Notes: generated by a model not told the origin, from the letters alone. A DNA stretch of 64,000 bases from Escherichia coli (GCF_009931435.1 NZ_CP043414.1); one strand, 5' to 3'. Positions 14,480 through 33,951 are shown, numbered from the stretch's first letter. Made by a program: numbers and translations.

Positions 14480-16471
14480 TTACTCAAGCAAGGTTAATAA
14501 TTGTTCGCAAAGCAAAACGCAGTTATTCATTGCTTCTCCCCGTGCCTCGCCTTCTGTATTACGAAATTGTCCCAACACATGTGCCAGCCGATAAAAACCC
14601 ATCGCGGTGAGTTCATTGACCAGCAACTCTGACTGACTAATGGCACTCTGTTCCTGATAGCGCCAGCCATTATGGAGCAGTTGAATAAGCAACGCCTGAC
14701 AGCGCATCAGTAACTGATGAGTGGTAGACGGTACAGGCAGAACGCTGGCAGAAGGTAGCGGTGTCACAGGCGCAGTTTCTGCGTCCAGTGCCCAGGCGCG
14801 GGTTTGCGTCATCATTACTCGTGGTTCCAGTGTCAATTGCCCCTCAGCAAAATTGATAAACCCAGAAACCAGACTAACGGGATCTTCTGTTTGTTGTAAT
14901 AGAGCTGCCATGCGTTCAACAGCAAAGGGCGCACTGGCTGAAGCTGGCAGTGATAACGTCAGCACATTATCTTCACCTTCGCCACTGATTACCTGCGCAT
15001 CCAGTGTCTGCCGACTGCTGTCCCAACCGAGTGAAATGCACTCTTCTACTGGCAGAATAAATAAGTTATCGACCTGGTTAAGCGGTCGTATGGCGGCTGG
15101 CGGACGTTGGCGTAAATATTCCCGCAAAGCCACAATGCCCGGCTGGCGCAGTGGTGCGCTCAACATTTGCCAGGCATCAGGCGACAGCGGAACAACACTG
15201 CTTAAGCGGTTGCGGGTAGCTAATAGCAACTCGCCATCGGCACTGCGTTTTGCTGCTTGTGAAACAATTTGCCCACCCGCCAGCGCGCCAGCCTGAAAAC
15301 TAAACAGCCGCCGTTTTGCCGCTGGAGAGTTATCCTGTTCACTTCTCGGCCAACTGCGCGAAAGATGCAAAATACTGCCGGTGTCGGGATCGGTGAACCA
15401 GATGCGTAAACCATACCGCTCATTATCCTGCCAGCAACGCATACCTAGTGACACCAGCCGCAAATGATCAAGCTTTGCTTCGCCAGCAATGCCTGCGCCA
15501 ACGACCGTGCGCCACGGTATGGGCGGTACTTCACCGACACTGTCACGTCGCGCTATCTCTTGTGCACTGTTCAAGCGACTGGTTAACGCCGCAAGCTGGC
15601 ACAAGCATTTTCCGGCATGATAGTGGCTGGCGCGGGCGTGGAAGGCATCAACGCTTGCCCGTAGCTGTCGTAGTGATTCACTTACCCAACGCCAGTTGCA
15701 GCGTTCCGCCGCTTGCTGCGCGCGGCTGAAAGCAGCCTCGTAATGAATAAGCGGCTGGCTGATCCCGCCCAGCCATAATGCCTGACTTAATTGCTGAACA
15801 TAGTGACGACATGCTTTACCTTCGTCGCTGGAAAACGGATCGTCAGATGATGTGACGTGTTCACTGTGCATCTGCCAGATCAAATGAGTAAATTCTGCTT
15901 GTTGATTTTTGGCCTCGACGAAGGCCTGCACAGCCAGTACTACGTGTTCACACAGCGTTCCTTCAATACAGTCACAACGGGCGAAACGAATGCTGCTGCG
16001 GGAATAAAAACGCACATCGCTCATCGGTAAGCGGGCAGAGGGAATTTCGCCCGGGGTGCAGAACAACTCAATGGTGATGCCTTTAGCGACCAGCGCCTGC
16101 GCGCGTTTGCGCGTGGTATTGGGCAGGGTAGCCAGTTCTTCCTGCCAGATTGCCGGATCCCACTCTTCTTCTTTTTCCGTAGGCTGGGCGGTGGCACAAA
16201 GTCGTTGATAACTTAACACCAGCATCACGCGATGACGGCACATGCCGCTGGCCCCGCAGCTGCATTGAGCCTCTTTCAGTGCCTGACTGTTCGCCAGCCG
16301 GGTACGGACACCGTCACTGAACGTGGCGATTAAAGCGCCGTTCTCATGGCAGATTTCCGGGACATTGCCATTTTCCAGTTCCTTAAGGCTGCGCTTCACA
16401 AAACCAGCATTGCTTAACGCCGTCAGGGCCTGCGGTGTCAGTTCTAATAATTCCGGACGTAGTGAATTCAT
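14480..16471 (-). CDS. yehQ: SWIM zinc-finger protein YehQ (start uncertain)
   Basis: Two CxCxnCxH motifs (CSCGASGMCRH and CDCIEGTLCEH); first ATG (MNSLRPELLEL) lies directly after the yehP stop. Confidence 0.75.
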   Translation of the reverse strand: MNSLRPELLELTPQALTALSNAGFVKRSLKELENGNVPEICHENGALIATFSDGVRTRLANSQALKEAQCSCGASGMCRHRVMLVLSYQRLCATAQPTEKEEEWDPAIWQEELATLPNTTRKRAQALVAKGITIELFCTPGEIPSARLPMSDVRFYSRSSIRFARCDCIEGTLCEHVVLAVQAFVEAKNQQAEFTHLIWQMHSEHVTSSDDPFSSDEGKACRHYVQQLSQALWLGGISQPLIHYEAAFSRAQQAAERCNWRWVSESLRQLRASVDAFHARASHYHAGKCLCQLAALTSRLNSAQEIARRDSVGEVPPIPWRTVVGAGIAGEAKLDHLRLVSLGMRCWQDNERYGLRIWFTDPDTGSILHLSRSWPRSEQDNSPAAKRRLFSFQAGALAGGQIVSQAAKRSADGELLLATRNRLSSVVPLSPDAWQMLSAPLRQPGIVALREYLRQRPPAAIRPLNQVDNLFILPVEECISLGWDSSRQTLDAQVISGEGEDNVLTLSLPASASAPFAVERMAALLQQTEDPVSLVSGFINFAEGQLTLEPRVMMTQTRAWALDAETAPVTPLPSASVLPVPSTTHQLLMRCQALLIQLLHNGWRYQEQSAISQSELLVNELTAMGFYRLAHVLGQFRNTEGEARGEAMNNCVLLCEQLLTLLE

Positions 16472-17604
16472 GACTGAAGATTCTCCGCAAGCCAGGTCGC
16501 CAGTTCGCCTGGCGTCATCGCGGCTATTTGTGCGCCGACATTTACCAGCGCCTGGGCTGTATCGCGGTCGTAGCAAGGTGTTGCGGTGCTATCGAGCGCT
16601 GCCAGTCCCAGCACTTTGATGCCGCTCTGGACACACTTTTTCACCTGATGCGTCAGCAATGATGATGAACCCCCTTCATAGAAATCGCTCACGAGGATAA
16701 TGACGCTTTTCGCTGGTTGTTCAATAAGTTGCCGACCATACTCCACGGCACTGGCGATATTGGTCCCGCCGCCCAGTTGTACTTTCATTAATAACTCTAC
16801 CGGATCAGCAACGTCTGCCGTGAGATCAACGACGCTGGTGTCAAAAGCGACCAGATGGGTGCGGATACCGGGTAACTGCCATAAACAGGCCGCCATCACC
16901 GCTGAGTGGATCACCGAATCGACCATTGATCCGCTTTGATCAACCAGTAACACCAGCTGCCATTGTTCGCTATGGCGTTTAATTCGGCTGTTAAAGCGGG
17001 GGGATTCGATATACAACTTGCCGTGTTGCGGGTGCCAGTGTTGCAGGTTGGCGCGCAGAGTACTTTTGAAATCGAAATTACGCGCCAGTGGAATAAATGA
17101 GCGGCGACGGCGATCGCGTACACCTGAAAAAGCCTGACGAACTTCCTTTGCCAGTCGCGCCATAATTTCTTCAACAACCTGGCGCACTATCCGGCGGGCG
17201 GCAGCCAGCACTTCGGGATTCATCAGATGTTTGGTGTGCAAAACGGCGCGTAGCAGGCTTTCAGAGGGCTGCATACGTTCCAGCACGTCGAGATTCGTCA
17301 CCACATCTTCAATGCCGTAGCGCAGTACGGCATCGCTTTCCAGCCGCTCAATCACCTGTTGCGGGAACAGCGTGTGAATACTGTTGATCCAATCAGGGGT
17401 GGTGAGATTTGAGCCACCTAATCCACCGGAGCGTTCACCACGCTGGAGCCGTTCAGGGTCGCGCCCGTACAGCCACTCCAGCGCGTGGTCTATCCGCCGG
17501 GCGTTGTCATCCAGCCCACAAAGCGTCGTTTCTGCCGCTTCGCCAAGAATTAATCGCCAGCGTTGTAGCTCACGAGTGGTCAGAAGATCGTTCAGTTCAG
17601 ACAT
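16468..17604 (-). CDS. yehP: von Willebrand factor A domain protein YehP
   Basis: Internal start MSELNDLLTT gives 378 aa; MIDAS-like DxSxS motif (LVDQSGSM); overlaps the yehM stop. Confidence 0.8.
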   Translation of the reverse strand: MSELNDLLTTRELQRWRLILGEAAETTLCGLDDNARRIDHALEWLYGRDPERLQRGERSGGLGGSNLTTPDWINSIHTLFPQQVIERLESDAVLRYGIEDVVTNLDVLERMQPSESLLRAVLHTKHLMNPEVLAAARRIVRQVVEEIMARLAKEVRQAFSGVRDRRRRSFIPLARNFDFKSTLRANLQHWHPQHGKLYIESPRFNSRIKRHSEQWQLVLLVDQSGSMVDSVIHSAVMAACLWQLPGIRTHLVAFDTSVVDLTADVADPVELLMKVQLGGGTNIASAVEYGRQLIEQPAKSVIILVSDFYEGGSSSLLTHQVKKCVQSGIKVLGLAALDSTATPCYDRDTAQALVNVGAQIAAMTPGELATWLAENLQS

Positions 17605-19876
17605 GGAAAACTCCCCAGTGTTGCAGTGATGCCAGTGCCTGCTGTTCGAGTTGTTGATGATGTGCAATGGCTTGCGGTGGGCAATGCAACGGCATTTGCA
17701 GCGCCGAAACGGGAAGCTGAGCGAGCTGGTAATGCTCAAGCACCTGATGCGCCAGCGTCCCGCGTTCTCGTGGCGGTAGCCAGGCCATCGCCGCGCGCAA
17801 ATCGGGCAGGGCGTTAATAAAATCGGCGTCACTCAGTTGATTCAAATGGCTGCTGAAACCGGCGATAAATGCAGGCTGACTGGCCAGTTGATGGCGGGCT
17901 AATGCCAGCAAACCGTGCAGCGCCTCGCCAGATTGTGCCGGGGATAATTGTGCCAGCATCGTCAGCGCCGCTTCGGCACTGGCGTTGGGATGTTCCAGAC
18001 GCATCAGCGCGCCAAGGGCCGCACCGCGATCCAGCGCTGGGGCATGAATCGCCTGACTGCGACGTTCCAGTAAGGCTACCGCCGCAGAAAGCGAAACGCC
18101 GGGTAAATTAACGCCGCTATTTAGATCGCGCAGGATATGGCAAAGCGCCTGCCAGCTATGCAGGTGAGCGTGAAACTCCTTCTCATCCGGCCTGCCGTTG
18201 GATTCACATAGCCACAGTGTGCGATCGATAGCCGCGTATAACGTCGTCTGTAATATCTGCGCGCCTTGCATACCGCTGATTTCATCGAGCTGCCACAAGG
18301 CGTAAAGCACTTCCAGCGCCTGGCCCATTTCGGCAAACTGATTTTCCTGGGCGATTAATAATGTGAGTTGTTCCAGTAATTGCTGACTGAAGGACGCCAG
18401 ACCCGCTAACGCTGCCTGGCTAAGACATGTGGTGATGCCGCTGATTCCACCCGCGTCCAGCATATCGGCTTCTAATTTATTGCGTGCGGCCTCCTGGAGT
18501 GTGGCACCAAAGCAGGCGGCTTCAATCAATGCCGCATGTTGGCTAAGTGGCTGGGTTAATGTCCAGCGTTCTTCACCGTTGCCCGCCAGCGTCAGTGTAC
18601 TTCCGTGCTGGCGCACAATGCCGGGAATCTCCAGTATTGCCAACCGATGTAGCACCTGACTTTGCGCCAGTCCATCGGGGGTAAAGCGATTTAAGGTAAG
18701 CTCCGCCGGAAGAGAGATTCCGGTACGTTCCAGTTCGCAGGTGACATCTTTTGGCAGAGGTGGCTGTGGCGTCGAGGGGGCAAGTTTACCGAATCCGTCA
18801 CCTGCTAATGTGTCTATCAACGTTACCAGTATCGGATCGGTATCGGGATGAATAACGCCGCGATAGCTCCACGGCAACGGCGCGTTCAGGGCTTCTTTGA
18901 TCAGCGAGCCTGCTATAGCATCCAGCCAGTCAGTGCGTAACGGTAGTGTATGACCGCGCAACTGTGCCAGTGCCATCGCATGCAGATGAGCGGCAGCCAT
19001 ATCCGCTGTTGAAGCAGGCAAGTGGTGCTGGCGCAAACGGGTAAGAACCGTTTTTAGTAGTTGTTCACCTGCCTGCTGCAAGCCCCACCGCCAGCACCAG
19101 TTTTGCCAGACCGGGGCAGGCATTCCTGAAAGGTATCCTGCCAGCACATCAAGGCGCTTTTCACTGTATGGCGTGAGATAGCAACCTGTAACGGCATCAT
19201 CCTGTGAGAGCAATTCTGGCTTGTTAATTTCTTGCGGGCATTCGCGCCACATTTTTGCAAGTGCCGGAGCGTGCCAGCCTCCGCAGACGACTAATACGTC
19301 GCCATTATTTTGCTGCATCGCCCATGCAATCCAGCGGGCCATAAAGGCTTCGCGCTGACGATTGAGTGCATCGCCGGAGGCGTCGCCCCGCAGTTGTGCA
19401 AAATAGTGCGCCAGTGCAGAGGGTAATATAGTTTGCTGGCTTTCATCTTCGAACAGGTGATCCCACAGAGTGTCGCTGTTATCCATACGAGTGGCACGCA
19501 GCAACAAAGCCTGGCTTTCCTCTTGCGTACCGGGTGACTCGTCCTCTTCTTCACTCTGCGCCCAGCAAGGCAAATCGATGAAGTAAGTTTGTGCCTGAAT
19601 ACGACGTGCGGCTTGTAGCGCCTGCCACTCCGGCGAAAATTCAGCAAATGGCGTCCAGGCACCACGCCCGGGGGCCGCACCGTCCTGATACTGGCAATAA
19701 CTGTAAATAGCTACCGGAAGCTGGTGGGCTAACAACAGTTCGTCTACCCGGTCATTAAAATCAGCCGGGCCTTCAATCAACACGTATCGTGGCCGCTGGC
19801 TTTCGATTAACGATTTCACCAGCCGGGCGCAGGCCGGACTATGATGCCGGATGCCGACAATTAACGGCTCGCTCAT
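17597..19876 (-). CDS. yehM: Uncharacterised protein YehM
   Basis: Internal start MSEPLIVGIRHH gives 759 aa; overlaps the yehL 3' end; no recognisable catalytic motif. Confidence 0.75.
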   Translation of the reverse strand: MSEPLIVGIRHHSPACARLVKSLIESQRPRYVLIEGPADFNDRVDELLLAHQLPVAIYSYCQYQDGAAPGRGAWTPFAEFSPEWQALQAARRIQAQTYFIDLPCWAQSEEEDESPGTQEESQALLLRATRMDNSDTLWDHLFEDESQQTILPSALAHYFAQLRGDASGDALNRQREAFMARWIAWAMQQNNGDVLVVCGGWHAPALAKMWRECPQEINKPELLSQDDAVTGCYLTPYSEKRLDVLAGYLSGMPAPVWQNWCWRWGLQQAGEQLLKTVLTRLRQHHLPASTADMAAAHLHAMALAQLRGHTLPLRTDWLDAIAGSLIKEALNAPLPWSYRGVIHPDTDPILVTLIDTLAGDGFGKLAPSTPQPPLPKDVTCELERTGISLPAELTLNRFTPDGLAQSQVLHRLAILEIPGIVRQHGSTLTLAGNGEERWTLTQPLSQHAALIEAACFGATLQEAARNKLEADMLDAGGISGITTCLSQAALAGLASFSQQLLEQLTLLIAQENQFAEMGQALEVLYALWQLDEISGMQGAQILQTTLYAAIDRTLWLCESNGRPDEKEFHAHLHSWQALCHILRDLNSGVNLPGVSLSAAVALLERRSQAIHAPALDRGAALGALMRLEHPNASAEAALTMLAQLSPAQSGEALHGLLALARHQLASQPAFIAGFSSHLNQLSDADFINALPDLRAAMAWLPPRERGTLAHQVLEHYQLAQLPVSALQMPLHCPPQAIAHHQQLEQQALASLQHWGVFHV

Positions 19877-19886
19877 GCATCTTTCC

Positions 19887-20975
19887 TCACGGCAGGCGGT
19901 GGCGAGCTTGATAATAAGCCTGCCAGTGAGCTTCTTTATGTGTAGCGACACGTTGTTCGAAGTAACGGCGCAGACGTGCGCGATCTTCTTCGTTATCTTT
20001 GACGATGGTTCCGGCAATACAGTCCACCAGGTCGGCTGGCTCCCCCGCGCGATTCGCTAAAAACCAGGCGCGGACGCCCACGGCGTGGGCCACGTTAACG
20101 GCTTCAGCGGTGGACATAATCGCTGTAAAGGTATCCATTGAGGTTTTCTTTTCGCCGTTGGCACGCAGATCGCGGAAGGTGCGGACCAGTAACTCCAGTA
20201 CCGCGTCAGGCACTTTATGCGGAATGCCACTATGGGCCAATAAACGCGCCGAAGCACTGGCGACCAGTTCCAGTTCCTGGGCGAAATCCATAATCGGAAA
20301 GACAGTTTCAAAATCGAATCGACGTTTTAGTGCCGCGCTCATTTCATTAACGCCGCGATCGCGGGTATTGGCAGTGGCAATAATATTAAAGCCTTCTCGC
20401 GCATAGAGCTGACTGGCTTCACCAGTGAGTTCCGGCACCGTCATAACCCTGTCAGAAAGCATACCTAACAGACAGTCTTGTACTTCCAGTGGTGTACGCG
20501 TTATCTCTTCAAAACGGACAATTTTGCCGTCGCGCATTCCCTGGTAGAGCGGGGCAGGGACCAGCGCTTCCGTTGACGGACCATGATTAATAAGCAGGGC
20601 GTAGTTCCAGCCGTACTTGATTTGATCTTCGGTGGTAGATGCGCCGCCCTGGATAGTTAACCCAGCATCGCCGCTAATAGCGGTTGCCAGTAATTCAGAC
20701 AGGAGCGATTTTGCGGTGCCTGGTTCCCCCACCAACATCAAACCGCGCCCGGTAGCAAGAGTGACTAACATGCGTTCGACAGCGGAGGGACTAATCACGA
20801 CTTTACGGCTGATATTTTGCGCGCTATCGCCAAGAATAAAAGAACGGGCCGCAGGCAAACTTAACTGCCAACCGGGCGGGCAAGGTGCGTGATCATTTTG
20901 TTTTAATTTTGCCAGTTCATCGGCGTATAACACAGCGGCAGGTGGACGCTGCAGATGATTATTCTGCGGTGACAT
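19887..20975 (-). CDS. yehL: MoxR-like AAA+ ATPase YehL
   Basis: Walker A LVGEPGTAKS; start at MSPQNNHLQRPP has an AGGGA Shine-Dalgarno-like sequence upstream and gives 362 aa (the ORF-track start at 21041 has none). Confidence 0.8.
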   Translation of the reverse strand: MSPQNNHLQRPPAAVLYADELAKLKQNDHAPCPPGWQLSLPAARSFILGDSAQNISRKVVISPSAVERMLVTLATGRGLMLVGEPGTAKSLLSELLATAISGDAGLTIQGGASTTEDQIKYGWNYALLINHGPSTEALVPAPLYQGMRDGKIVRFEEITRTPLEVQDCLLGMLSDRVMTVPELTGEASQLYAREGFNIIATANTRDRGVNEMSAALKRRFDFETVFPIMDFAQELELVASASARLLAHSGIPHKVPDAVLELLVRTFRDLRANGEKKTSMDTFTAIMSTAEAVNVAHAVGVRAWFLANRAGEPADLVDCIAGTIVKDNEEDRARLRRYFEQRVATHKEAHWQAYYQARHRLP

Positions 20976-21094
20976 ATATTCATCCCTGAAATGTATTAAT
21001 GAAATAAAAGATATTTTACGCGCAATAAATGTTTGGCGCATTAGTTGTTTGAGCGGAAAATATCTGGAAAGCAGATCACAGTAAATAAAAAAAC

Positions 21095-21235
21095 CTGCTG
21101 GTGAGGCAGGTTCTTTTATTTACTACTTTCAGGCCTAACACCACGGCCTGTGCAACATCGTGTTCCAACGAACGAATTATAACCACCGCTGGACCCCGTT
21201 GCAATTAAGATAATGAGATTTATAATCCTGACAGT
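21095..21235 (-). ncRNA. orzO: Candidate OrzO antitoxin sRNA, copy 1 (boundaries approximate)
   Basis: On the minus strand the hairpin aacctgcctcaccagcaggtt is followed by a 7-T run, i.e. a terminator for a transcript running divergently from the zorO leader. Confidence 0.35.
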
Positions 21236-21407
21236 TGGGAGGTTGCGCCGGATCGAACCAATTTCAAGTCCTGGCTACCGGACGGGTGGTGCTGCAGGTG
21301 GTGCCCTGATCCGGAGTGCAACATCGTGGTCCAACATACGTAAACCAGTATCGACAGGCAGTGTAAGGGTAAGGTGCTGGTGTTGCGCTCCTTAATAAGG
21401 AGAGCGG

Positions 21408-21497
21408 ATGGACACGCTGACACAAAAGTTAACCGTGCTCATTGCCGTACTGGAGTTATTAGTGGCTCTGTTACGGTTGATTGATTTGTTGAAGTAA
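21408..21497 (+). CDS. zorO: Type I toxin ZorO, 29-aa hydrophobic peptide, copy 1
   Basis: atg..taa ORF encoding MDTLTQKLTVLIAVLELLVALLRLIDLLK, preceded by ggagag Shine-Dalgarno-like sequence and followed by hairpin gggggaaaataccgcttccccc plus T-tract; matches my recollection of ZorO. Confidence 0.75.
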   Translation: MDTLTQKLTVLIAVLELLVALLRLIDLLK

Positions 21498-21704
21498 CGG
21501 GCAAATTGAAACGCATCTAAGGGGGAAAATACCGCTTCCCCCTTTAATAAAATGATTACTGTTTTTAATAATTCATCATATAACTCATTTTTATTTATAA
21601 ATTCATCGATTTTATATTCAACGCACCATTTGACCGGGATGTAAATATTTATGGTGGGCTATTGGCAAAAAATATCTGGAAAGTAGATCGCAGAAAATAA
21701 AAGA

Positions 21705-21845
21705 ACCTGCTGGTGAGGCAGGTTCTTTTATTTACTACAGTGACGCTAACTTGCTGATTGTGCAACATTTCGTACCAACGAATAAATTATAACCATATCC
21801 ACACTCCATTGCAATTCAGTGAATGAGATTTATAATCCTGCCCGT
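21705..21845 (-). ncRNA. orzO: Candidate OrzO antitoxin sRNA, copy 2 (boundaries approximate)
   Basis: Same minus-strand hairpin plus U-rich tract as copy 1. Confidence 0.3.
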
Positions 21846-22017
21846 TGGGAGGTTGTGCCGGATCGGACCAATTTTAAGTCCTGGCTGCCGGACGGGTGGT
21901 GCCGCAGGCGGTGCCCTGATCCGGAGAGCAACGTTTCGTACCAACATACGTAAACCAGTATCGACAGGCAGTGTAAGGGTAAGGTGCTGGTGTTGCGCTC
22001 CTTAATAAGGAGAGCGG

Positions 22018-22107
22018 ATGGACACGCTGACACAAAAGTTAACCGTGCTCATTGCTGTACTGGAGCTATTAGTGGCTCTGTTACGGTTGATTGATTTGTT
22101 GAAGTAA
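22018..22107 (+). CDS. zorO: Type I toxin ZorO, copy 2
   Basis: Peptide identical to copy 1 despite synonymous nucleotide differences (gcc to gct, tta to cta). Confidence 0.75.
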   Translation: MDTLTQKLTVLIAVLELLVALLRLIDLLK

Positions 22108-22160
22108 CGGGCAAATTGAAACGCATCTAAGGGGGAATACCGTTTCCCCCTTTAATAAAG

Positions 22161-22481
22161 CTATTTTTCTATTTGTTGGATGAATATATTTTGTAGTTCA
22201 CGATTAAAAATTGCTATTACAGTTTTAGGTGATTCACCTCGTAATTTACGCTCATCAATAAATTCATCTCTTATATAAATCAACGCATCATTTATTAGCG
22301 GGTCGACATCTTCTCGATCACGTTGATGAAATGTTGGATGTAGCCGGAATCGCTCCAACCGGTAGACGGAACCAGTAAATAATTCAGAGCGTTTATGGAC
22401 CTCAAGTCTGAAGGAAAACGGATCTTCAGGTACAGGGTCCTCATAATCGTAAATAGCGACCAGCTCTTTTTGCACGATCAT
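22161..22481 (-). CDS. yehK: Small uncharacterised protein YehK
   Basis: 106-aa ORF downstream of yehI; acidic; no known motif. Confidence 0.7.
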   Translation of the reverse strand: MIVQKELVAIYDYEDPVPEDPFSFRLEVHKRSELFTGSVYRLERFRLHPTFHQRDREDVDPLINDALIYIRDEFIDERKLRGESPKTVIAIFNRELQNIFIQQIEK

Positions 22482-22540
22482 CGCTTTCCCGTTGGTAAGT
22501 CGTGTTGAAAACGGGCAGTCGCATCACTGCCCGTTGTGTT

Positions 22541-25500: not shown

Positions 25501-26197
25501 CCTTAGAATGATAATGAGTCCGTGGGCATTCAAGGCCTATCAACTCATTGGCGATTTCTGGTTTCTCCGGGAGGATGAGTGCAATAAAAGGACGGCGAAC
25601 TTTGGGTATTCCTGGCAGTGCGGCAATGAGTTTGTCGGCGCAACGCTGCCAGCAGCTTTCCTCTGCCAGAGAGAGATGCTTACGCAGTCGGAGATCGAAT
25701 TCGTTATAGGTTTCTGAGCGATAACCATAGCCATAGCCATAGTCCTCCTTCTGATACTGCAATGTTACTACCAGAGGATCACTCTCATAACACCGTACAA
25801 TAAACTGGCGTGCAATCACCACCTCAGTCGCATATTCCAGCCCCTCTTGTTGGACGATTTCGTCGAGTAACTGTTGGCTATCATTTTGCGCGATACAGGC
25901 TAGCGCCGCCATTGTCCGGGCCGGAATTGAGGGTTTGTGCTCGCCGATCAAGTTGATGGCTTGCGTAATGGCCGACTGCCACTCCAGTGAAAAATTTTCA
26001 TAACGCCAGACAATGTTTTTTTTCTTCTCAGCAATGTGTAGCAATTTATCACCCAGTGTCTGGATGAGGCTTTCAGTGATAACAGGCACCGGTTCGCCCG
26101 GCCAATTGCGATGGCTGAGTGGTGTTTTGCCTTTTTTATATTTCAGTTCCAGTTGGGCGTTATCCGCCAGCCACGGTAATTCCTTGTCCATGCTCAT
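22541..26197 (-). CDS. yehI: Giant DUF4132-family protein YehI (no WGR domain)
   Basis: 1218-aa ORF; C-terminal region is paralogous to the two upstream genes (shared FDFGPRQFTV block); start is 4 bp from the upstream stop. Confidence 0.8.
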   Translation of the reverse strand: MSMDKELPWLADNAQLELKYKKGKTPLSHRNWPGEPVPVITESLIQTLGDKLLHIAEKKKNIVWRYENFSLEWQSAITQAINLIGEHKPSIPARTMAALACIAQNDSQQLLDEIVQQEGLEYATEVVIARQFIVRCYESDPLVVTLQYQKEDYGYGYGYRSETYNEFDLRLRKHLSLAEESCWQRCADKLIAALPGIPKVRRPFIALILPEKPEIANELIGLECPRTHYHSKEWLKVVANDPSAVRKLDHYWSQDIFSDREASYMSHENHFGYAACAALLREQGLAAVPRLAMYAHKEDCGSLLVQINHPQVIRTLLLVADKNKPSLQRVAKYSKNFPHATLAALAELLALKAPPARPGYPIIEDKKLPAQQKARDEYWHTLLQTLMASQPQLAEEVIPSLSTQARAVVNSYLSASPKPVIDSTNNSSLPEILVSPPWRGRKKTSITHFSLPELTLVPQAYKSPNKHWTPEQQTAIDHFSAMSFDERLANRGADTFLRELGFDVHSLEFNKRLLNGQLDAFDTQQLQEYTSIGLLHTYHAHQAKSKQYREEATKSLLAQDSIALMGGWRTFQHGFYYGNEKRWGIWNLYLIAQMPREMAVSCWQQIVAADFHYTGVEYLLSVLGTDALPGLITAFARHPKEIFPLLIHFGATELALPVARVWHRFAGQRNLARQWILQWPEHTATALIPLVYTKSSDNSEAALLALRLLYEQGHGELLQTVANRWQRTDVWPSLEQLLKQGPMDIYPARIPKAPDFWHPTMWSRPRIITNNQPVTDDALEIIGEMLRFTQGGRFYCGLEQLKTFCQPQTLAAFARDLFTAWQQAGAPAKDNWAFLALSLFGDESTARDLTTQILAWPQEGKSARAVSGLNILTLMNNDMALIQLHHISQRAKSRPLRDNAAEFLQVVAENRGLSQEELADRLVPTLGLDDPQALIFDFGPRQFTVRFDENLNPVIFDQQNVRQKSVPRLRADDDQLKAPEALARLKGLKKDATQVSKNLLPRLETALRTTRRWSLADFHSLFVNHPFTRLVTQRLIWAVYPANEPRRLLNAFRVAAEGEFCNAQDEPIDLPADDLIGIAHPLEMTAEMRSEFAQVFADYEIMPPFRQLMRRTVLLTPDESASNSLTRWEGKSATVGQLMGMRYKGWESGFEDACVYDLGEYRLVLKFSPGFNHYSADSKALMSFRSLRVYRDNKSVTFAALDVFDLSEALSAPDVIFH

Positions 26198-26200
26198 TCC

Positions 26201-29200
26201 TTATTCAAACAGGGCTTCGATGTCGTTAATTAACTCGCTAGCGGTGATGTCATCGAGTGCGGAGAACTGCGCTTCCTGTGTTGAATCAATCCCCCAGCCA
26301 TAGCTTTCTGCTTTGCCTTCCCATAGCCACAGCTTGCTTAAGAGTTGCTCGGCACTGAGTTCGGCTGGCGACATACCAACTGCAAATCCTTCATCGATTT
26401 CCATGATTAATGACCAGCGGCCCAGAGGTTTGATCATCCAGCCGATCCAGCCACCGTCCTGCGGTTCACCACGCATCCAGCCTTTATTCGCCAGCCCCAT
26501 TACCCGACCGCTCGGGCATTTTCTGCCTGCCCAGCGGGTCAATTCGCTGGCATTGCGCTCGGTTTCTGTCAGGGCGTAACTGTTACGGTCGAGCTGGCGG
26601 AACGGCGGTAGCAGTTCGTAGTCGGCAAAAAGCTGACCAAAGGCGGCAGCATCCGTGGGTGATATTTCCAGAACGTGAGGAATGCCAACAGAGATATCGC
26701 CTTCCGGCAGGGTGAAAAGATCATCGTCAGCGGTGCTGTAGCTGTTATCTTCCGCCACACGGAAGCACGCCAGTAACTGGTTGTCTGCGCTATAAATGCC
26801 CCAAATCAGACGGCGGGTTAAGTGGCAGACCAGCGGATGCTCAACCAGAAAGAGCTGAAAGTTTTCTGGCGACCAGCGGCGGCGCAGGCACATGGCGGAT
26901 TCCAGCCTTGCCACCTGCTGGGCGGCAACGGTACGCGCATCTTTTTTCAGCAGTTTGTAGCGGTTAACTGCATCGTTCGCTTGAGTTTCATCATCGCTTT
27001 TGTTCGGTTTAGGCAAGTCTTTCAGGCGGCTGCCGGAAGCATCACGCACAAACGGTTTTAAGGTTTCATCAAAGCTGACGGTGAACTGCCGTGGCCCGAA
27101 ATCCAGCAGCAGCGAACCGTTATCATCCAGACCGAGATCCGGTGCTAACCGGTCTTCAAGCTCCGCCACCGTGAGTTCGCGGCTCTCGGCAATGTCGGCA
27201 ATTTTTTCTTTTGCCCGCTCCTGTAATGCTTTGAATTTCAGTTTCTGGGCGATGCCGTTAAGCTGCATCAGGGCGATATCACTACCGATAGCAGCGAGAA
27301 TATCCAGCCCGACGGTGGCGCGTTTATGCTGGGATTCACCAGGCCAGGCGCGAATCAAAGGCGTCAGTTTGCGGGCGGTATCATCGTTGCCGAGAACACC
27401 TAACGCAGTGAACGCCCAGCTTTCTTTCGACGGTGCGCCAGCGGTCTGCCAGGCGGTAAACAGATCCCAGGCAAATTCAGCCAGTGAGTCGGCGGTACAG
27501 GCATCTTTCACCTGCAATAATCCCGCATACAGAGCCTCTTCCTGAGGGAAGCGGAGCATTTCACCGAGGTGGAGGAGGGCGTTATCTGGCAGTGATTGGG
27601 CGTTTGCTTTTAATACCGGGCGTGTCCAGAGCGATGGCTGATAAAAGGCCGGAAGTGTCGGGATTTTAGTCGGGTGATTATCTAAGGGATCGAGCGCAAG
27701 TAGAGCGTTCACCGCATCGGTTACTTCCGGCTGGTTATAACGCTGGGCGATTTCTTGCAGTAATGACGGATAACCACTTTCAATCAACATACGTAAGGCG
27801 GCGCGGGCGTTATCCTGGGCTTCACCAGCTTTGCCGAGTGCCGCAGGCAACAGGCCGATAATGGCATGTTCCGGATATTTCAGCAGCCAAGTGCGGGCGT
27901 CTTGTCGTAGAGTTTTGAGTTTGTTAAAGGCGCGGGCGACGGCAGGAGCCAGTTCCGTTGCGGCAAAATAATTAGCAACCGCAAAACCTTCTTGAGGGTA
28001 GCGTGAAAACGAGTGTAGAAAACCACTCATACCTGCCAGTCGCAAATAAAGCATGACAGGTTTTACCGCGGTATGCGGCTCTTTGCTGAGAAACTCCCAT
28101 AGTTTAATCGCTTTTTGCATAGGTAAAAAGGGAAGTGAGTTGAGATGCCACTCCCCCTGATACGGTGCATGGTGGGCTTTAAACATTTGGATGAGTGTAG
28201 CGAAGTCCTCACGTTCCCATGCGTCAATTGCCGAGTCAGAAGCGCCGATATATTTATATGTGTCAAAATCCCAGCGGCGATACCCCAGCGAGTAAAGGAA
28301 ATCTTTAGCACCTTCACCTGGCTTATGCGATTCCCAGTCCCAATGAGTTTGAAACTCTTTTGCTTCTGTGTCGGTTATTGTGCATATGGATTTGAGTTTG
28401 AGCGGTGCTAAATCCAACACCGGAATCGTCGATTTTTTCTTTTTCGAAAGCCAGGGAGGTAAGACTAATACGGCTGGCAGTAGAGCGGCGCAGGCATGGT
28501 TTGACGGTTGTATCAGTTGTTGCTGGCATGATTTCAGCACTTCAACTGCGGCTGTCGAGAGCCAGGGAGTGACCTGTTCTGCCAGTGCCGGTTGCGAGAT
28601 AAGCATCGTCATTAGCATAATGCGCCAACTATTCTCTTCTTTTTGCGCAAGAAGTTCCGCCAGTGCTGCCAGTGCTGCGTGTGGGAACGCAGCGCAGGCT
28701 TTCGTCATTCGATCGTGACAGCGTTTAGTAAGCCCGGCTACACGTATAAGCAGTGTTAATGCGAACGGATGATTGATATGACGCAACACATCGGCGCAGT
28801 AGTCACTTGCGGCATAGGGAGCAAATCGGGGCAGGGCTGCAACACCTTGCTCCTGTAATACGGTGGCTGACAATATCGCACCACAATAGTAATCATCAAA
28901 AATGGCATATGGCTCGTGATATTTTTCTAATGAGGCAAGAATGTGCTCATCAGTCGCCACTATTTTTAGCCACTCAAGCGAGGGTAATTTTTTTTTCCCC
29001 AGTAGACGCTGGGCAATTTCATGTGCAATTTCTGGTTTTTCGGGTAATAACAAAGCAATTAATGGTTGCCGCCATTCTGGAATATGTGGAATTGCGGCAA
29101 TAAGTTTTTGTGCACATTTTTGCCAGAGAGACTCTTCCGCCAGTGATAAATGTTTCCGTAGGCGTAATTCAAAACTGGAATATTGCTGCAGGTTATCAGG

Positions 29201-29989
29201 TGCAATACCAGACGGCAGAATAATAATGGTATTATTCGCATAATCCCATTCAATATCAATCTGTTGAAGATGTATTACTACATCAGTAGCATATTCCAGG
29301 CCACCTTCCTGAACGAGCTGATCCATAACATCCTCACGCTCTTTATATCTCGTGCACTTCAGTTCAAGTGCCGTGAGTACAGCCATTACTGGTGATGGTA
29401 ACTGTGTTGTTTTCAGGCAGTCGATCTGACTGAGCGCCTGGGAGATGGCGTTTTGCCATTCTAAAGAACAGGCGCTGAAATCAAATGTGGCTGTTTTATT
29501 ATCCCGTTGCGACACGCTACAGGCTAAGCGACGTAACTGGGTCAAGTTGTCTGCTTGCTGAACAGGAACTCCGGGAAAGCGGCGATGGCTTAACGTGGTG
29601 TGTACAACTTCGGGCGGAAAAACGACAGCAATATCTTTCGCCAGCCACGGTAAAACATCATCTGTATTTTTGTCAGCCACACGGGCTTCTGCTACGCAAA
29701 AGGGTTGTTCCTGAATAATGGTGGATAAGGCCGCTACCTTGAGAGAATCCGTTACCGTTTGGGAAGGTTGCAAAGAATTATCCTTCGCTTGCCCCACATA
29801 CCCCTTCTTCACCTTCTCCGCAATCAGCCTCAGTTCCGCTTTTTCCGCCGCCGCAGCATCAGCAAAGCTTTTTACCTGGCTTTGCCCGTTGGTACTGACT
29901 TTGCCCCAACTAATATGCAGCTCGTTTCCCTGTTGCTCCACTGCCCAGAATTTATGTGATTTTTCGTCCTGATAAATATAGGTTTTCAT
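26201..29989 (-). CDS. WGR-domain plus DUF4132 protein, molR/yehH-like paralog A (intact)
   Basis: 1262-aa ORF; N-terminus MKTYIYQDEKSHKFWAVEQQGNELHISWGKV is WGR-like; aaggaa Shine-Dalgarno-like sequence upstream; C-terminus ends LDDITASELINDIEALFE. Confidence 0.8.
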   Translation of the reverse strand: MKTYIYQDEKSHKFWAVEQQGNELHISWGKVSTNGQSQVKSFADAAAAEKAELRLIAEKVKKGYVGQAKDNSLQPSQTVTDSLKVAALSTIIQEQPFCVAEARVADKNTDDVLPWLAKDIAVVFPPEVVHTTLSHRRFPGVPVQQADNLTQLRRLACSVSQRDNKTATFDFSACSLEWQNAISQALSQIDCLKTTQLPSPVMAVLTALELKCTRYKEREDVMDQLVQEGGLEYATDVVIHLQQIDIEWDYANNTIIILPSGIAPDNLQQYSSFELRLRKHLSLAEESLWQKCAQKLIAAIPHIPEWRQPLIALLLPEKPEIAHEIAQRLLGKKKLPSLEWLKIVATDEHILASLEKYHEPYAIFDDYYCGAILSATVLQEQGVAALPRFAPYAASDYCADVLRHINHPFALTLLIRVAGLTKRCHDRMTKACAAFPHAALAALAELLAQKEENSWRIMLMTMLISQPALAEQVTPWLSTAAVEVLKSCQQQLIQPSNHACAALLPAVLVLPPWLSKKKKSTIPVLDLAPLKLKSICTITDTEAKEFQTHWDWESHKPGEGAKDFLYSLGYRRWDFDTYKYIGASDSAIDAWEREDFATLIQMFKAHHAPYQGEWHLNSLPFLPMQKAIKLWEFLSKEPHTAVKPVMLYLRLAGMSGFLHSFSRYPQEGFAVANYFAATELAPAVARAFNKLKTLRQDARTWLLKYPEHAIIGLLPAALGKAGEAQDNARAALRMLIESGYPSLLQEIAQRYNQPEVTDAVNALLALDPLDNHPTKIPTLPAFYQPSLWTRPVLKANAQSLPDNALLHLGEMLRFPQEEALYAGLLQVKDACTADSLAEFAWDLFTAWQTAGAPSKESWAFTALGVLGNDDTARKLTPLIRAWPGESQHKRATVGLDILAAIGSDIALMQLNGIAQKLKFKALQERAKEKIADIAESRELTVAELEDRLAPDLGLDDNGSLLLDFGPRQFTVSFDETLKPFVRDASGSRLKDLPKPNKSDDETQANDAVNRYKLLKKDARTVAAQQVARLESAMCLRRRWSPENFQLFLVEHPLVCHLTRRLIWGIYSADNQLLACFRVAEDNSYSTADDDLFTLPEGDISVGIPHVLEISPTDAAAFGQLFADYELLPPFRQLDRNSYALTETERNASELTRWAGRKCPSGRVMGLANKGWMRGEPQDGGWIGWMIKPLGRWSLIMEIDEGFAVGMSPAELSAEQLLSKLWLWEGKAESYGWGIDSTQEAQFSALDDITASELINDIEALFE

Positions 29990-30001
29990 TGCTAATTCCT
30001 T

Positions 30002-33000
30002 TTAATTAAACAGTGATTCAATGTCGTTAATCAGCTCGCTGGCGGTGATGTCGTCGAGTACGGAGAAAGTGGGTGAGGATTGCTTACCATAGCGATCATA
30101 AGGGGCGGTGATTTTTACGCTTTCGACAGGCAGCAGGTCGCTATACCCCGTTTCGCCATAAATTAATGAAAAAGGTTCTGTTTCAAGTTCGAGAGCGCCA
30201 TAAGGGGTAGATTTGCGCATCGCATAGACGCTGCCGCTTTCTTCCAGACGTTGCCAGCCTCGGCGCTCTAGCCCGACAATACGTCCGGCCTGACAGAGCT
30301 GTCCTTGCCAGCGTGTCAGGTCGTGGGTATTCCGTTCATTATCAGCAAGACGATAACTACCACGATCGAGCTGTTGGAAGGGGGGAAGCAGTTCGTAATC
30401 AGCGTAAATTTGCCTGAATGCAGCGGCAGATTCAGGGGGGATTTCCAGCACATGCGGTATACCGATGTTTCCTGCTGGCAGCGTGAATAACTCATCCTGC
30501 ATATCGCTGTAAGTGCTGTCTTCTGCGACCCGGAAGCAGGCAATCAGCGTGTTTTCCTCAGTATATACTCCCCATAACAGCCGTCGGGTTAAGTGACGTA
30601 CCAGCGGATGCTCCACCAGAAACAGGCGGAACTGTTCTGCCGTCCAGCGTCTGCGCTGGCACATAGCCTGCTCCAGACGATCAATCTGCTGACTGGCAAT
30701 GGCGCGCACATCTTTCTTCAATTGTTTGAAGAGGTTAACGGCGTCAGTTGCCAGTGTTTTATCATCGCTCTGATTTGGTTTGGGTAAATCTTTCAGGACT
30801 TTGCCGTTTGCATCGCGCACTACAGGTTTTAAGGTTTCGTCAAAACCAACGGTGAATTGACGTGGGCCGAAATCCAGTATCAGCGAGCCACTGCTATCAA
30901 GCCCTAAATCTGAAGCCAGGCGGTCTTCCAGTTCAGCCATTGTCAGTCCGCGATTTTCGGCGACCATATTGATTTTGTCGCGGGCGTGTTCCTGCAATGC
31001 TTTGAATTTAATCTTTTGTGCAATGCCATTAAGCAGCATCAGCGCAATATCGCTACCGATACTGGCTAACACATCCAGCCCAGAAACCGCACGTTTATGC
31101 TGGGATTCACCCGGCCAGACCCGGATAAGCGGGGTTAGTTTACGCGCGGTGTCGTCATTGCCTAAAATCCCCAGCGAGGTAAATGCCCAGTTTTCTTTTG
31201 CGGGCGCGCCAGATTCCATCCATGCCGTGTAGAGATCCCAGCCAAAGTCAGCCAGTGATTCCCGGGTGAAGATTTCTCTAATGATATCCAGTCCAGCGTA
31301 GGCGGTAATGTCGCGAGGGAAGCTCAACATAGTGCCCAGGTGGCGCATAGCGTCATCGGACAGAGGCAGATTGTTACTTTTAAGCCGTGGTCTGCGCCAT
31401 AAGGTGAACTGATAAAAGCCGGGCAGTGGGGCGATTTTTGCGGGATATTCTTCCAGCGGATCGCTATCGAACAATGTTGCCAGCGCAGCTAAAACATCTG
31501 GTTGATTATATCCTTGGGCAATTTCCTCAATCGTTTCTCGCTGGTTTAAATTCACCAGCAGGCGAAGCGCCTGGCGGGCACAATCACGATCTTTTCCTTG
31601 TTTGCCCAGTGCCACAGGAAGTAGCCCGGCGGTGGCATGGCGTGGGTAATCAGTTAGCCAGTTTCGCGTATCTTCATAAGACATTTTTTTCTGTAATTGT
31701 TGCGCCATCGGTAAGGCCAGGTCACTGACACCGAGGAAAAAGGGGAAGAAGCACAGACGTCGTGGATCACGTTGCAGGCAGGTCATAAATGAAGGTATGG
31801 CGGCGCTACCAAAAATTGCCAGAATATTTCCCTCATCAGAGTAGTTATCTTCTTTGACTATCTGGTTAAGAAAAGAAATGGCCTGTTGACCAGGCAGGTA
31901 ACAGAGGGCAATGAGATTCCAGCTTTTGTATGCATTGTTATGGTATTGCACAAATTCAGCATTGAGTGCTGGAAAATCGAAGCGTAGCAGGGCATCAACG
32001 GCGCTTTGTGGCGCCGGAATTTTTTCGTAGATTTTTTCTCCGCTTTCCCGCCATTTTTCAAAACCAAGATGCCACAGTATTTGTTGCTCCGGTGTAAGCG
32101 GTATTAAGTGTTTCTCCCAGCTTGCTTTTTTTATCGGCGGCAGGTCGGTAAACAATGTTTGTTTTGTCGCCTGCTGTTGGGCTATTTGCTGGAAGCGGGT
32201 GACAAGGTAAGTACGGGTTAGTCTTTTGGCAATCTCGGGAGTGACATCAGAAACAGAAGGAACTGGAAGCACTGGAAGATCAAACACAGGCGTATTTTTC
32301 TTTTTCTCTTTGGTCATCCAGGGCGGCGAAACAAACAGCTCCGGCAACATATCCACAGTGGCATATTCACATTCTTCAGCTACTGGCTGCGGACGACATT
32401 CAGATAAGATGCCTGCCGCTTTAGCATTAACCCAGGGAATGACGTCACATACCAACTCTGGCCTGATGGTAATCAGTTTGATAAGTGCGTTACGCCACTG
32501 TGCATCTTCGTGTATTGCAAGCAAAGTAGCATAAGCGGCAATAGCTGCAGCGGGATGTTTTTGACAGGCTTTGCTTAAGTATTCCAGGTGCTTTTTCTTG
32601 CCAATCACAGCGAGGATCAGAATTTGAATCGCATCCGGGTGATTCGTTTTCCATAGCCATTTGACAAGATTTTCAGTCTCGCTGTTGCGCTCGAAAAGAT
32701 AAGTGGGATTGTCAGAATGCTCTTCCGTAAACTCAAGAAGGATCTGGCTTACACCCCGAATTCCATTATTCGCCAGCAACATTGCCAGATAAGCGCGAAA
32801 ATTACGAAAATCACGATACAACGGTGGGAAGTCGTATTTTTCCACTGTACTCAGAGCAGTATCATCGGTTATCACCAGTCTTAACCAGGTCATCGCCGGA
32901 ACGTTTTGGTCTGCATAGCGTAGAGCCATAGCATTGGCAATATCCGGGCGTTCAGGGAGCAGTAACGCGGCAAAAGGTTGCCGTGCTGGAGATAGCGAGG

Positions 33001-33811
33001 GAATAGCCGCGAGTACTTTATCTACACAGCGTTGCCACTCATCTTCTGAAGTGAGTGAAAGATGATGACATAGACGTTGATGCCAACTAGGTAGCGATTC
33101 TGCTTCGTGATTAGGTGGAATGATGGTGGTTACTGCGCCTTTTACTGGTTTATATTTGAGTTGAATAGCGAGAAGGGCAATTTCAACGGCACTTTCCAGA
33201 CCACAGCGAATGACTAAGTCATCGACCAATTCATCTGCAGAGTAAGAGTTCCAAAAACTCCAAAGCAATGCTGCATCAGATTGCGCACTTCCTGTCTGTT
33301 GACTACCCAGAATTCGCATTTGTAACTCAGCAAACGCCTGCTGCCAGTTTTCTGGATAAGAACGGTAATTGTTGTCGGGATCATATGCCCTGGTGTTATC
33401 TGCAATACGCTTCCATATCTCACCGTCTTTGCGCAGATAATTGATCTCTCTGGGGCGAGAGCGATGTGGAAAAGCAAATCGGTTAATATCGTCGGTTAGC
33501 GGAATGGCTGCATCATCAGCCAGCCATGGGCGTTTGTTTTTACTCTCAGGTGAAGTTTCAACTTCAGGAGTGACTTTGGTGACGGGGGGGATATGCACGT
33601 TTGCCGAAGCGTCTTCCACATAGCCTTTTTTCGTTTTCTCAGCGATAAGCTTCAGTTCCGCTTTTTCCGCCGCCGCAGCATCCGCAAAGCTTTTTATCTG
33701 GCTTTGCCCTTGGGTGCCAACTTTTCCCCAACTGATATGCAACTCGTTACCTTGCTGCCCCACCGCCCAGAATTTATGCGATTTTTCGTCCTGATAGATA
33801 TAACTCTTCAT
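30002..33811 (-). CDS. WGR-domain plus DUF4132 protein, molR/yehH-like paralog B (intact)
   Basis: 1269-aa ORF; N-terminal 65 aa nearly identical to paralog A; agggaa Shine-Dalgarno-like sequence upstream; C-terminus ends LDDITASELINDIESLFN. Confidence 0.8.
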   Translation of the reverse strand: MKSYIYQDEKSHKFWAVGQQGNELHISWGKVGTQGQSQIKSFADAAAAEKAELKLIAEKTKKGYVEDASANVHIPPVTKVTPEVETSPESKNKRPWLADDAAIPLTDDINRFAFPHRSRPREINYLRKDGEIWKRIADNTRAYDPDNNYRSYPENWQQAFAELQMRILGSQQTGSAQSDAALLWSFWNSYSADELVDDLVIRCGLESAVEIALLAIQLKYKPVKGAVTTIIPPNHEAESLPSWHQRLCHHLSLTSEDEWQRCVDKVLAAIPSLSPARQPFAALLLPERPDIANAMALRYADQNVPAMTWLRLVITDDTALSTVEKYDFPPLYRDFRNFRAYLAMLLANNGIRGVSQILLEFTEEHSDNPTYLFERNSETENLVKWLWKTNHPDAIQILILAVIGKKKHLEYLSKACQKHPAAAIAAYATLLAIHEDAQWRNALIKLITIRPELVCDVIPWVNAKAAGILSECRPQPVAEECEYATVDMLPELFVSPPWMTKEKKKNTPVFDLPVLPVPSVSDVTPEIAKRLTRTYLVTRFQQIAQQQATKQTLFTDLPPIKKASWEKHLIPLTPEQQILWHLGFEKWRESGEKIYEKIPAPQSAVDALLRFDFPALNAEFVQYHNNAYKSWNLIALCYLPGQQAISFLNQIVKEDNYSDEGNILAIFGSAAIPSFMTCLQRDPRRLCFFPFFLGVSDLALPMAQQLQKKMSYEDTRNWLTDYPRHATAGLLPVALGKQGKDRDCARQALRLLVNLNQRETIEEIAQGYNQPDVLAALATLFDSDPLEEYPAKIAPLPGFYQFTLWRRPRLKSNNLPLSDDAMRHLGTMLSFPRDITAYAGLDIIREIFTRESLADFGWDLYTAWMESGAPAKENWAFTSLGILGNDDTARKLTPLIRVWPGESQHKRAVSGLDVLASIGSDIALMLLNGIAQKIKFKALQEHARDKINMVAENRGLTMAELEDRLASDLGLDSSGSLILDFGPRQFTVGFDETLKPVVRDANGKVLKDLPKPNQSDDKTLATDAVNLFKQLKKDVRAIASQQIDRLEQAMCQRRRWTAEQFRLFLVEHPLVRHLTRRLLWGVYTEENTLIACFRVAEDSTYSDMQDELFTLPAGNIGIPHVLEIPPESAAAFRQIYADYELLPPFQQLDRGSYRLADNERNTHDLTRWQGQLCQAGRIVGLERRGWQRLEESGSVYAMRKSTPYGALELETEPFSLIYGETGYSDLLPVESVKITAPYDRYGKQSSPTFSVLDDITASELINDIESLFN

Positions 33812-33951
33812 CCGCGTTCCCTGTATTTATATCCAGTTATAAGCGGATGCTAGCAGTTAATGAAAAAAATTAAGAGCGTTGAACAAACAAGAAAACAACT
33901 TTAGGAATTCATAAAGAAAAGGCGCTGTCGATGCAGCGCCTTGAAGGGGGA

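Follow-up and report, generated by a model that had tools for sequence, protein, structure and literature searches.

A stretch of 64,000 nucleotides of the Escherichia coli genome GCF_009931435.1 (NZ_CP043414.1; the whole stretch is called the window below) carries the yeh locus at positions 14480-33811. The locus encodes a five-protein system, conserved from E. coli to actinomycetes in at least three phyla, which consists of a MoxR-type AAA+ ATPase (YehL), a DUF5682 protein (YehM), a VWA protein with a metal ion-dependent adhesion site (MIDAS) motif (YehP), a SWIM zinc-finger protein (YehQ) and one or more giant DUF4132 proteins. In three phyla, this same cassette appears to be controlled by three unrelated regulators of the response to DNA damage: LexA, PafBC and DdrO/IrrE. 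An earlier note on this DNA, made from the sequence alone, had proposed a single multi-component MoxR/VWA system linked to giant WGR/DUF4132 genes, and the cross-phylum synteny that bears out this proposal is near-perfect. As the note also remarked, none of the proteins has an established biochemical function.

Layout and conservation of the yeh cassette

Listing and translation of the open reading frames (ORFs) at 14480-33811 give eight intact ORFs, all on the minus strand. The earlier note had announced nine co-oriented minus-strand genes; the row and its orientation are as described, but the count is eight, which is also the number of genes that the note names. The starts of YehQ, YehP, YehM and YehL were set with the closest E. 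coli genome and its RefSeq annotation as a guide. The genes are as follows (lengths in amino acids, aa):

14480-16471, minus strand: YehQ, 663 aa, SWIM zinc-finger protein
16468-17604, minus strand: YehP, 378 aa, VWA (CoxE-like) protein with an intact MIDAS motif
17597-19876, minus strand: YehM, 759 aa, DUF5682 protein with a predicted N-terminal TIKI/TraB/ChaN-like alpha/beta domain and a predicted C-terminal HEAT-like helical repeat domain
19887-20975, minus strand: YehL, 362 aa, MoxR-type AAA+ ATPase of the AAA_5 family
22161-22481, minus strand: YehK, 106 aa, Escherichia-only insert outside the conserved cassette
22541-26197, minus strand: YehI, 1218 aa, giant DUF4132 protein without WGR
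26201-29989, minus strand: paralog A, 1262 aa, giant WGR-DUF4132 protein (local hidden Markov models, HMMs)
30002-33811, minus strand: paralog B, 1269 aa, giant protein with WGR, a predicted HEAT solenoid and C-terminal DUF4132; first gene of the array

The yehQ and yehP genes overlap by 4 nucleotides (nt) and yehP and yehM by 8 nt, the gap from yehL to yehM is 10 nt, and the three giant genes are spaced 3-12 nt apart. These overlaps and the tight spacing suggest co-translation of yehLMPQ and of the giant genes. Identity to E. coli is ~97% at metG/apbC and 92-96% over the yeh locus, which places the window in an Escherichia lineage a little beyond typical E. coli. Some match to the yeh region is found in 5424 of 5426 complete E. 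coli genomes, with at least 80% of the locus covered in 831 of the 5426. The K-12 order is the yehF + yehH pseudogene (the old 'molR'), yehI, yehK and yehLMPQ. Paralog A is the intact orthologue of this pseudogene (82-94% aa identity), and paralog B is absent from K-12 by protein comparison.

When a YehM profile was run against a single genome of each species, at least 576 relatives were confirmed. From these, 80 loci of Gamma- and Betaproteobacteria, Myxococcota and many Actinobacteria were kept with 10-kb flanks, and their ORFs were searched with HMMs built iteratively from the window proteins. The co-occurrence of the cassette with WGR-DUF4132 genes, which the earlier note had made a test of its proposal, recurs across genomes: all five families (DUF4132, YehL, YehM, YehP and YehQ) are present on one strand in 59 of the 61 loci with enough flank to be informative. 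The usual order is DUF4132(n)-YehL-YehM-YehP-YehQ, co-directional and tightly packed, and yehP lies two genes downstream of yehL in every complete locus. A Pseudoduganella genome and a metagenome contig of the Joint Genome Institute (JGI) show the same arrangement of DUF4132 genes, AAA_5, DUF5682, VWA_CoxE and SWIM. In two Burkholderia loci the WGR-DUF4132 gene sits after YehQ. In the loci with all five families, one to four giant genes, often with WGR, accompany the other four. One giant gene was seen in 28 loci, two in 12 and three in 20, these being lower bounds set by flank length, and a WGR-bearing copy is present in at least 45 of 73 loci.

Two loci from Myxococcota metagenome-assembled genomes (L038 and L058) carry YehL-YehM-YehP with no detectable SWIM gene downstream, and in L038 a DUF4132 gene is likewise missing within 10 kb. 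These may be reduced or variant forms of the cassette.

No neighbouring gene family is conserved across genera in the 80 loci; neighbour clusters are genus-specific, with rpoH as the exception. In seven loci of Xanthomonadales and Comamonadaceae (L010, L016, L017, L021, L024, L029 and L033), rpoH lies directly 3' of yehQ on the same strand (e.g. L010:10633-11526, NCBIfam RpoH, 1e-123). This adjacency could be coincidental synteny or a regulatory link. In a Dactylosporangium locus, a gene for a DnaE-type polymerase (L086:16955-19047; PHP/DNA_pol3_alpha, 1176 aa) follows the cassette on the same strand.

Components of the system

YehL belongs to the Pfam family AAA_5 (E 2.6e-34) and carries the MoxR-type Walker A motif GEPGTAKS, which had been read in the sequence earlier, at residues 83-90. 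It represents one of seven recognised MoxR subfamilies (PMC3893208), and its closest solved sequences are the Midasin AAA modules and MoxR 2r44. Motif conservation was measured in other genomes, over ~80 homologues. In YehL, neither Walker A (GEPGTAKS) nor Walker B (VRFEEI) varies among 81 homologues. YehP matches VWA_CoxE (E 1.1e-71), with the VWA domain occupying residues 151-372 of 378. The MIDAS-like DxSxS pattern noted before is present as DQSGS at residues 222-226, and it is near-invariant in 78 homologues, with a single G-to-A exception. Both YehL and YehP give weak NCBIfam matches to GvpN and cobaltochelatase models, with scores far under the curated cut-offs. YehM-YehP fusion proteins occur in divergent lineages (P0228, P0267, P0169); they are weak evidence of a functional link because one frameshift in the 8-nt overlap could produce them.

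YehQ matches the Pfam SWIM family only weakly (E 0.0036 and 0.21), but the two CxCxnCxH fingers that the earlier note had assigned to it are clear, in the form CxCx5CxH, at residues 70-80 and 166-176. The first finger is kept in 73 of 74 homologues and the second in 36 of 74, so the 'double SWIM' architecture is a trait of about half the family and not of its core. YehQ has no significant sequence-level match to solved structures. In all, the Pfam searches confirmed AAA_5, VWA_CoxE and WGR, and every motif and domain that had been claimed is present.

YehM is assigned to Pfam DUF5682 (E 4.5e-97). Its structure was predicted from a 32-sequence alignment with a predicted local distance difference test score (pLDDT) of 89.2 and a predicted template modelling score (pTM) of 0.85. 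The model has fold matches to the TIKI superfamily (alpha/beta, with a parallel beta-sheet core) and to HEAT proteins, and according to it YehM combines a TIKI/TraB/ChaN-like hydrolase fold with HEAT repeats. Profiles of the full-length protein and of its N-domain have no significant sequence-level match to solved structures. The catalytic signature of the TIKI superfamily, which takes in TraB, PrgY, ChaN and erythromycin esterase, is made up of two His and two Glu plus a basic residue, Arg (PMC6254334). The invariant residues of YehM are R10-H11-H12, E35, E83, R175-E176 and G199-x-x-H202, and, judging from the model, hydrolase activity is plausible.

The earlier note spoke of three giant WGR/DUF4132 paralogs. 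All three giants carry DUF4132, but WGR is found only in paralogs A and B (in paralog B, WGR 1.6e-17 and DUF4132 2.4e-51 in Pfam), and YehI has none; the WGR-like N-termini that the note placed on two proteins of ~1260 aa are those of A and B. The best solved relative of the WGR domain is the Bacteroides WGR protein 2ra8 (9.3e-17). Similar to PARP-type WGR proteins, paralogs A and B begin with a clear WGR domain. Unlike these proteins, the giants have no PARP catalytic domain, their WGR is fused to a predicted HEAT solenoid of ~900 aa and to DUF4132, and it is absent from YehI and many actinobacterial copies. The AlphaFold2 model of paralog B residues 71-1269, made from 47 sequences (pLDDT 86, pTM 0.77), shows a long solenoid of helices over residues ~60-900 of the model and, after it, a C-terminal alpha/beta region with DUF4132. 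Its only fold matches are HEAT/ARM solenoids, and the giant-protein profile has no significant sequence-level match to solved structures. By this model, each giant protein consists of a HEAT solenoid and, at its C-terminus, a conserved domain.

DUF4132 always ends 0-8 residues from the C-terminus, and almost all invariant positions of the giants fall within the C-terminal 300-400 aa. In the window, paralog B is 47% identical to A and 32% to YehI, and A is 40% identical to YehI; the C-terminal region is 66-79% identical and the solenoid 22-40%. In the Dactylosporangium locus L086 the giant genes are apparently split (507+626 and 885+348 aa). A search with the C-terminal domain of DUF4132 returned mostly gene fragments. 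In Kitasatospora, a standalone DUF4132 protein of 273 aa (L087:9001-9822) has no YehLMPQ cassette nearby, so the domain also exists outside the system.

The components evolve at different rates. The ratio of nonsynonymous to synonymous substitution rates (dN/dS) between the window and K-12 is 0.00 for apbC, 0.007 for btsR and 0.02 for metG. It is 0.03 for YehP, 0.04 for YehL and 0.08 for YehM, and reaches 0.20 for YehQ, 0.27 for YehK and 0.32 for YehI. Paralog B has a dN/dS of 0.28 against E. coli RMDEC465. Paralog A was left out of the K-12 comparison because the K-12 copy is frameshifted, which makes its ratio meaningless. The picture is one of a strongly constrained engine (YehL, YehP and YehM) and faster-evolving adaptors (the giants and YehQ), with variable copy number.

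Probable damage-responsive control in three phyla

The region upstream of paralog B contains three conserved elements:

33819-33838, minus strand: LexA (SOS) box, coding-strand sequence AACTGGATATAAATACAGGG, ending 10 nt before the paralog B start codon
33847-33855, minus strand: conserved TGnTAGCAT element just upstream of the LexA box, invariant in a three-way upstream alignment
33919-33942, minus strand: strong terminator-like hairpin for metG, directly upstream of the paralog B promoter/LexA region, conserved in E. coli

The LexA box scores 21.9 bits and is the best match in the 64-kb window to a position weight matrix made from E. coli sites. Both E. coli RMDEC465 and K-12 (upstream of yehF/molR) have the box in the same place, while its flanks diverge. 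Published work lists molR among the LexA-regulated genes with a known SOS box (PMC6590174). The metG hairpin indicates that the giant-gene array has its own transcription start. The TGnTAGCAT element is a possible extended -10 promoter, and a consensus promoter scan gave nothing at 33847-33855. Another promoter candidate, TTCATT / TATAAC, was rejected: it shows no conservation in K-12, and the promoter scan did not pick it up. The second-best LexA-like site of the window lies at 6312-6331 (AACTGGATATCTATCCGGAA); its 13.0 bits place it near the bottom of the range of the matrix-building sites.

Upstream of the actinobacterial cassettes there is no convincing match to the actinobacterial LexA box TCGAAC-N4-GTTCGA. 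These regions are instead enriched for the promoter consensus of the RecA-independent regulator PafBC, tGTCgg(N10)tA(N3)T (PMC8635444). The same-strand zones upstream of DUF4132 genes, 43 kb in all, hold the exact motif 15 times, over 13 loci, whereas the 1.61 Mb outside them, read on both strands, hold it once (Poisson P ~2e-36). It was found in Lentzea, Actinomadura, Umezawaea, Herbidospora, Spirillospora, Kibdelosporangium, Catellatospora and Actinokineospora, and it heads the array in 11 of the 19 actinobacterial loci whose first gene lies fully inside the locus.

The third case comes from Deinococcus. The five-gene operon ddrTUVWX (Deide_18730-18690) encodes SWIM, MoxR-like and VWA CoxE-like products and two 'conserved proteins'; it is induced by radiation, >5- to 10-fold, in an IrrE/DdrO-dependent manner, and it has a radiation/desiccation response motif (RDRM) site in several species (PMC4007540, PMC5552922). 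A DUF4132 protein and a WGR protein of D. radiodurans are mitomycin C-induced DdrO targets (PMC8533742). Similar to the yeh cassette, ddrTUVWX is a damage-induced five-gene operon in which MoxR-x-VWA stand in the same relative order as YehL-YehM-YehP. It differs in that the SWIM gene comes first, whereas it is last in the yeh cassette, and in that the regulator is DdrO/IrrE and not LexA. From published annotations and gene order we infer that ddrTUVWX is probably the same cassette. Taken together, the LexA box, the PafBC motifs and the radiation-induced ddrTUVWX point to a DNA-damage-response module.

Three parts of this picture had each been described before: the YehL subfamily, the status of molR as an SOS gene, and the ddrTUVWX operon. 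In the literature searched, nothing links ddrTUVWX to E. coli yeh/molR or to the actinobacterial clusters, nothing unifies the three across phyla, and neither the PafBC link nor the structural assignments are reported.

Possible functions of the system

Of the explanations considered, we lean with some reserve towards a five-component machine that is switched on after DNA damage, an AAA+/MIDAS remodelling machine with fast-evolving adaptors. We infer its substrate and mechanism as follows. After damage, the giant adaptors would be made, and the engine with them where the genes form one operon. YehL would assemble into a MoxR-type AAA+ ring. YehP would couple to this ring, and its MIDAS site would grip an acidic residue of the client, as in RavA-ViaA, CbbQ-CbbO and Rea1/Midasin. 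YehM would serve as a scaffold through its HEAT domain, and its TIKI/TraB-type hydrolase-like domain may cut a peptide or ester bond, while YehQ would contribute a zinc-finger binding surface. The giants would act as exchangeable adaptors or sensors: through WGR and the variable solenoid they would bind nucleic acid that is damaged, or a nucleoprotein complex associated with damage, and through their conserved C-terminal DUF4132 region they would dock on the YehLMPQ engine. The bound target would then be remodelled, extracted or processed at the expense of ATP.

A more specific version, which we regard as a long shot, makes the cassette a bacterial counterpart of the AAA+-plus-protease clearance of proteins from damaged DNA (p97/Cdc48 with SPRTN/Wss1). 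Here, the targets of the WGR-HEAT-DUF4132 adaptors would be lesions in DNA, DNA-protein crosslinks or nucleoprotein complexes that have stalled, the YehL-YehP motor would pull out the trapped protein, and the TIKI-like domain of YehM would cleave it. If this is true, E. coli itself would have a DNA-damage tolerance pathway that is both new and widespread.

Several observations weigh against a damage-response machine of this kind. In the remaining proteobacterial loci (Erwinia, Serratia, Iodobacter, Variovorax, Massilia and others) no LexA-type box of at least 13 bits precedes the cassette, and inspection by eye of 23 upstream regions found no shared motif; damage control is therefore seen in three lineages and not universally. 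The Deinococcus operon was matched by published annotations and gene order. Many actinobacterial arrays are without WGR, and none of the folds found is a classic repair fold such as that of a nuclease, ligase or helicase. In a successful ST131 sublineage the DUF4132 region is disrupted by a transposon (PMC9334617); together with the molR pseudogene of K-12, this indicates that neither laboratory growth nor life in the host requires the giant genes. The Escherichia yehLMPQ genes are parted from the LexA-controlled giants by yehK, two toxin-antitoxin modules and an intergenic region to which H-NS binds, and co-induction of the engine is uncertain there.

The cassette resembles three groups of known systems. 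The MoxR-VWA remodellers RavA-ViaA, CbbQ-CbbO, NorQ-NorD and CoxD-CoxE also pair an AAA_5 MoxR ATPase with an adjacent VWA/MIDAS partner. Unlike them, the yeh cassette has three further obligate partners (DUF5682, SWIM and giant DUF4132), lacks a nearby gene for a client metalloenzyme and is under DNA-damage regulation. With Rea1/Midasin it shares the proposed logic of an AAA_5 motor and a MIDAS that would act on large HEAT-repeat assemblies, but the yeh motor and MIDAS are separate small proteins with no ribosome-biogenesis context, and the analogy is one of mechanism and not of whole-system homology. The vWA-MoxR ternary conflict systems (Kaur et al. 2020) likewise have a MoxR and vWA core, extra large components, one of which is diversified, and a frequent occurrence in actinomycetes and myxobacteria. 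The yeh system differs in having no VMAP, iSTAND or FtsH component (Pfam for YehM, YehQ and paralog B; NCBIfam for all eight proteins) and no C-terminal effector on YehP, which ends with the VWA domain, and in being a stable chromosomal core locus.

This last resemblance (PMC7159879) underlies the main rival to a damage-response function, namely conflict or anti-phage defence, which the earlier note had favoured, which the findings do not support and which we consider improbable. In such a 'ternary-like' NTP-dependent MoxR-vWA system, the diversified giants would sense an invader, and damage induction would reflect prophage induction or phage attack. In favour of defence are the variable number of giant paralogs (from one to at least three per locus), the evolution of the giants and YehQ at 3-10 times the rate of the engine, the pseudogenes and transposon disruptions in E. 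coli (PMC9334617), H-NS silencing of the region (PMC3686432) and the toxin-antitoxin modules inserted in the locus. Yet none of the eight proteins matches a family in PADLOC-DB v2, and the paper on the ternary systems mentions neither WGR nor Yeh proteins (PMC7159879). Caspase, trypsin, TIR or nuclease-type effector domains are missing, also from the YehM and paralog B models. The locus is near-absent from mobile elements: 2.9 million viral contigs contain one match, itself E. coli-like DNA, and the 39 matching records among 72,556 plasmid records are in many cases hundreds of kb to Mb long or chromosome-sized. Flanking genes conserved within genera speak for vertical inheritance at a stable chromosomal position with no island hotspot, and the region has matches in 5424 of 5426 E. 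coli genomes. Finally, the Deinococcus radiation/desiccation response (RDR) and mycobacterial PafBC regulons are dominated by DNA repair genes.

The sole match in the viral collection, L085 (IMGVR_UViG_2562617057_000009), is 96% identical to the YehM of the window. Matches in PHROGs are to near-identical small families with high ID numbers, which cover all eight proteins, and to generic AAA families. This suggests that the PHROGs and IMG/VR matches come from chromosomal DNA of E. coli which public viral catalogues have mistaken for prophage.

Somewhat less probable still is a role in proteostasis after stress, in which a MoxR-VWA chaperone refolds or matures specific protein complexes, the target is not nucleic acid and DNA damage is one of several signals. 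In its favour, MoxR proteins as a rule act in maturation in the manner of chaperones (PMC3893208), HEAT solenoids serve as scaffolds that bind proteins, rpoH lies directly downstream in the seven Xanthomonadales and Comamonadaceae loci, and no nucleic-acid enzyme fold was found. Against this role, LexA, PafBC and DdrO/IrrE are all dedicated DNA-damage regulators, and no client gene is conserved beside the cassette. WGR and SWIM, moreover, are typically modules associated with nucleic acid or chromatin. We give very little credence to insertion of a metal centre or cofactor of the CoxD/CoxE, NorQ/NorD or Mg-chelatase type. It would fit the VWA_CoxE assignment of YehP, the GvpN and cobaltochelatase matches of YehL and YehP, and the historical molR label, from 'molybdate metabolism regulator'. 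Those NCBIfam scores, however, are far under the curated cut-offs, no metalloenzyme or cofactor gene is conserved beside the cassette in the 80 loci, molybdenum genes were unchanged in the D. radiodurans study (PMC8533742), and damage regulation would be left unexplained.

The SOS, mycobacterial-type PafBC and Deinococcus radiation regulons are among the best-studied stress responses, and each still holds genes of unknown function. Our results indicate that the three regulons have one such unknown in common, the five-protein MoxR/VWA machine, and the cassette appears to have been recruited independently under the three unrelated damage regulators. Annotations such as molR, yehLMPQ, ddrTUVWX and 'DUF4132/DUF5682 clusters' are thereby brought together into one testable system. 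For a MoxR subfamily and two large DUF families, the damage-response function offers a lead in which a fast-evolving adaptor arm serves a strongly conserved ATPase engine. This lead can be tested in E. coli itself, better in strains with three intact giants than in K-12, where molR is broken.

The segment that separates yehL from the giants in Escherichia varies in length and content. The gap between yehL and yehK is 1.1 kb in the window, 573 bp in E. coli RMDEC465 and 306 bp in K-12. YehK itself was seen only in two E. coli loci among 84 and has no match in Pfam, NCBIfam or PADLOC. H-NS binds the intergenic region and silences yehLM in Escherichia (PMC3686432). In the window, the gap holds the following features:

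21057-22110, between yehL and yehK: two tandem zor-orz type I toxin-antitoxin copies, direct repeats with a 610-bp period, 89-94% identical
21087-21162 and 21699-21772, minus strand: OrzO-P antitoxin RNAs (Rfam, 98.9 and 87.3 bits)
21408-21497 and 22018-22107, plus strand: identical 29-aa toxin ORFs, MDTLTQKLTVLIAVLELLVALLRLIDLLK

The zor-orz modules are an insertion and not part of the system, and their repeats contain divergent promoter-like sites.

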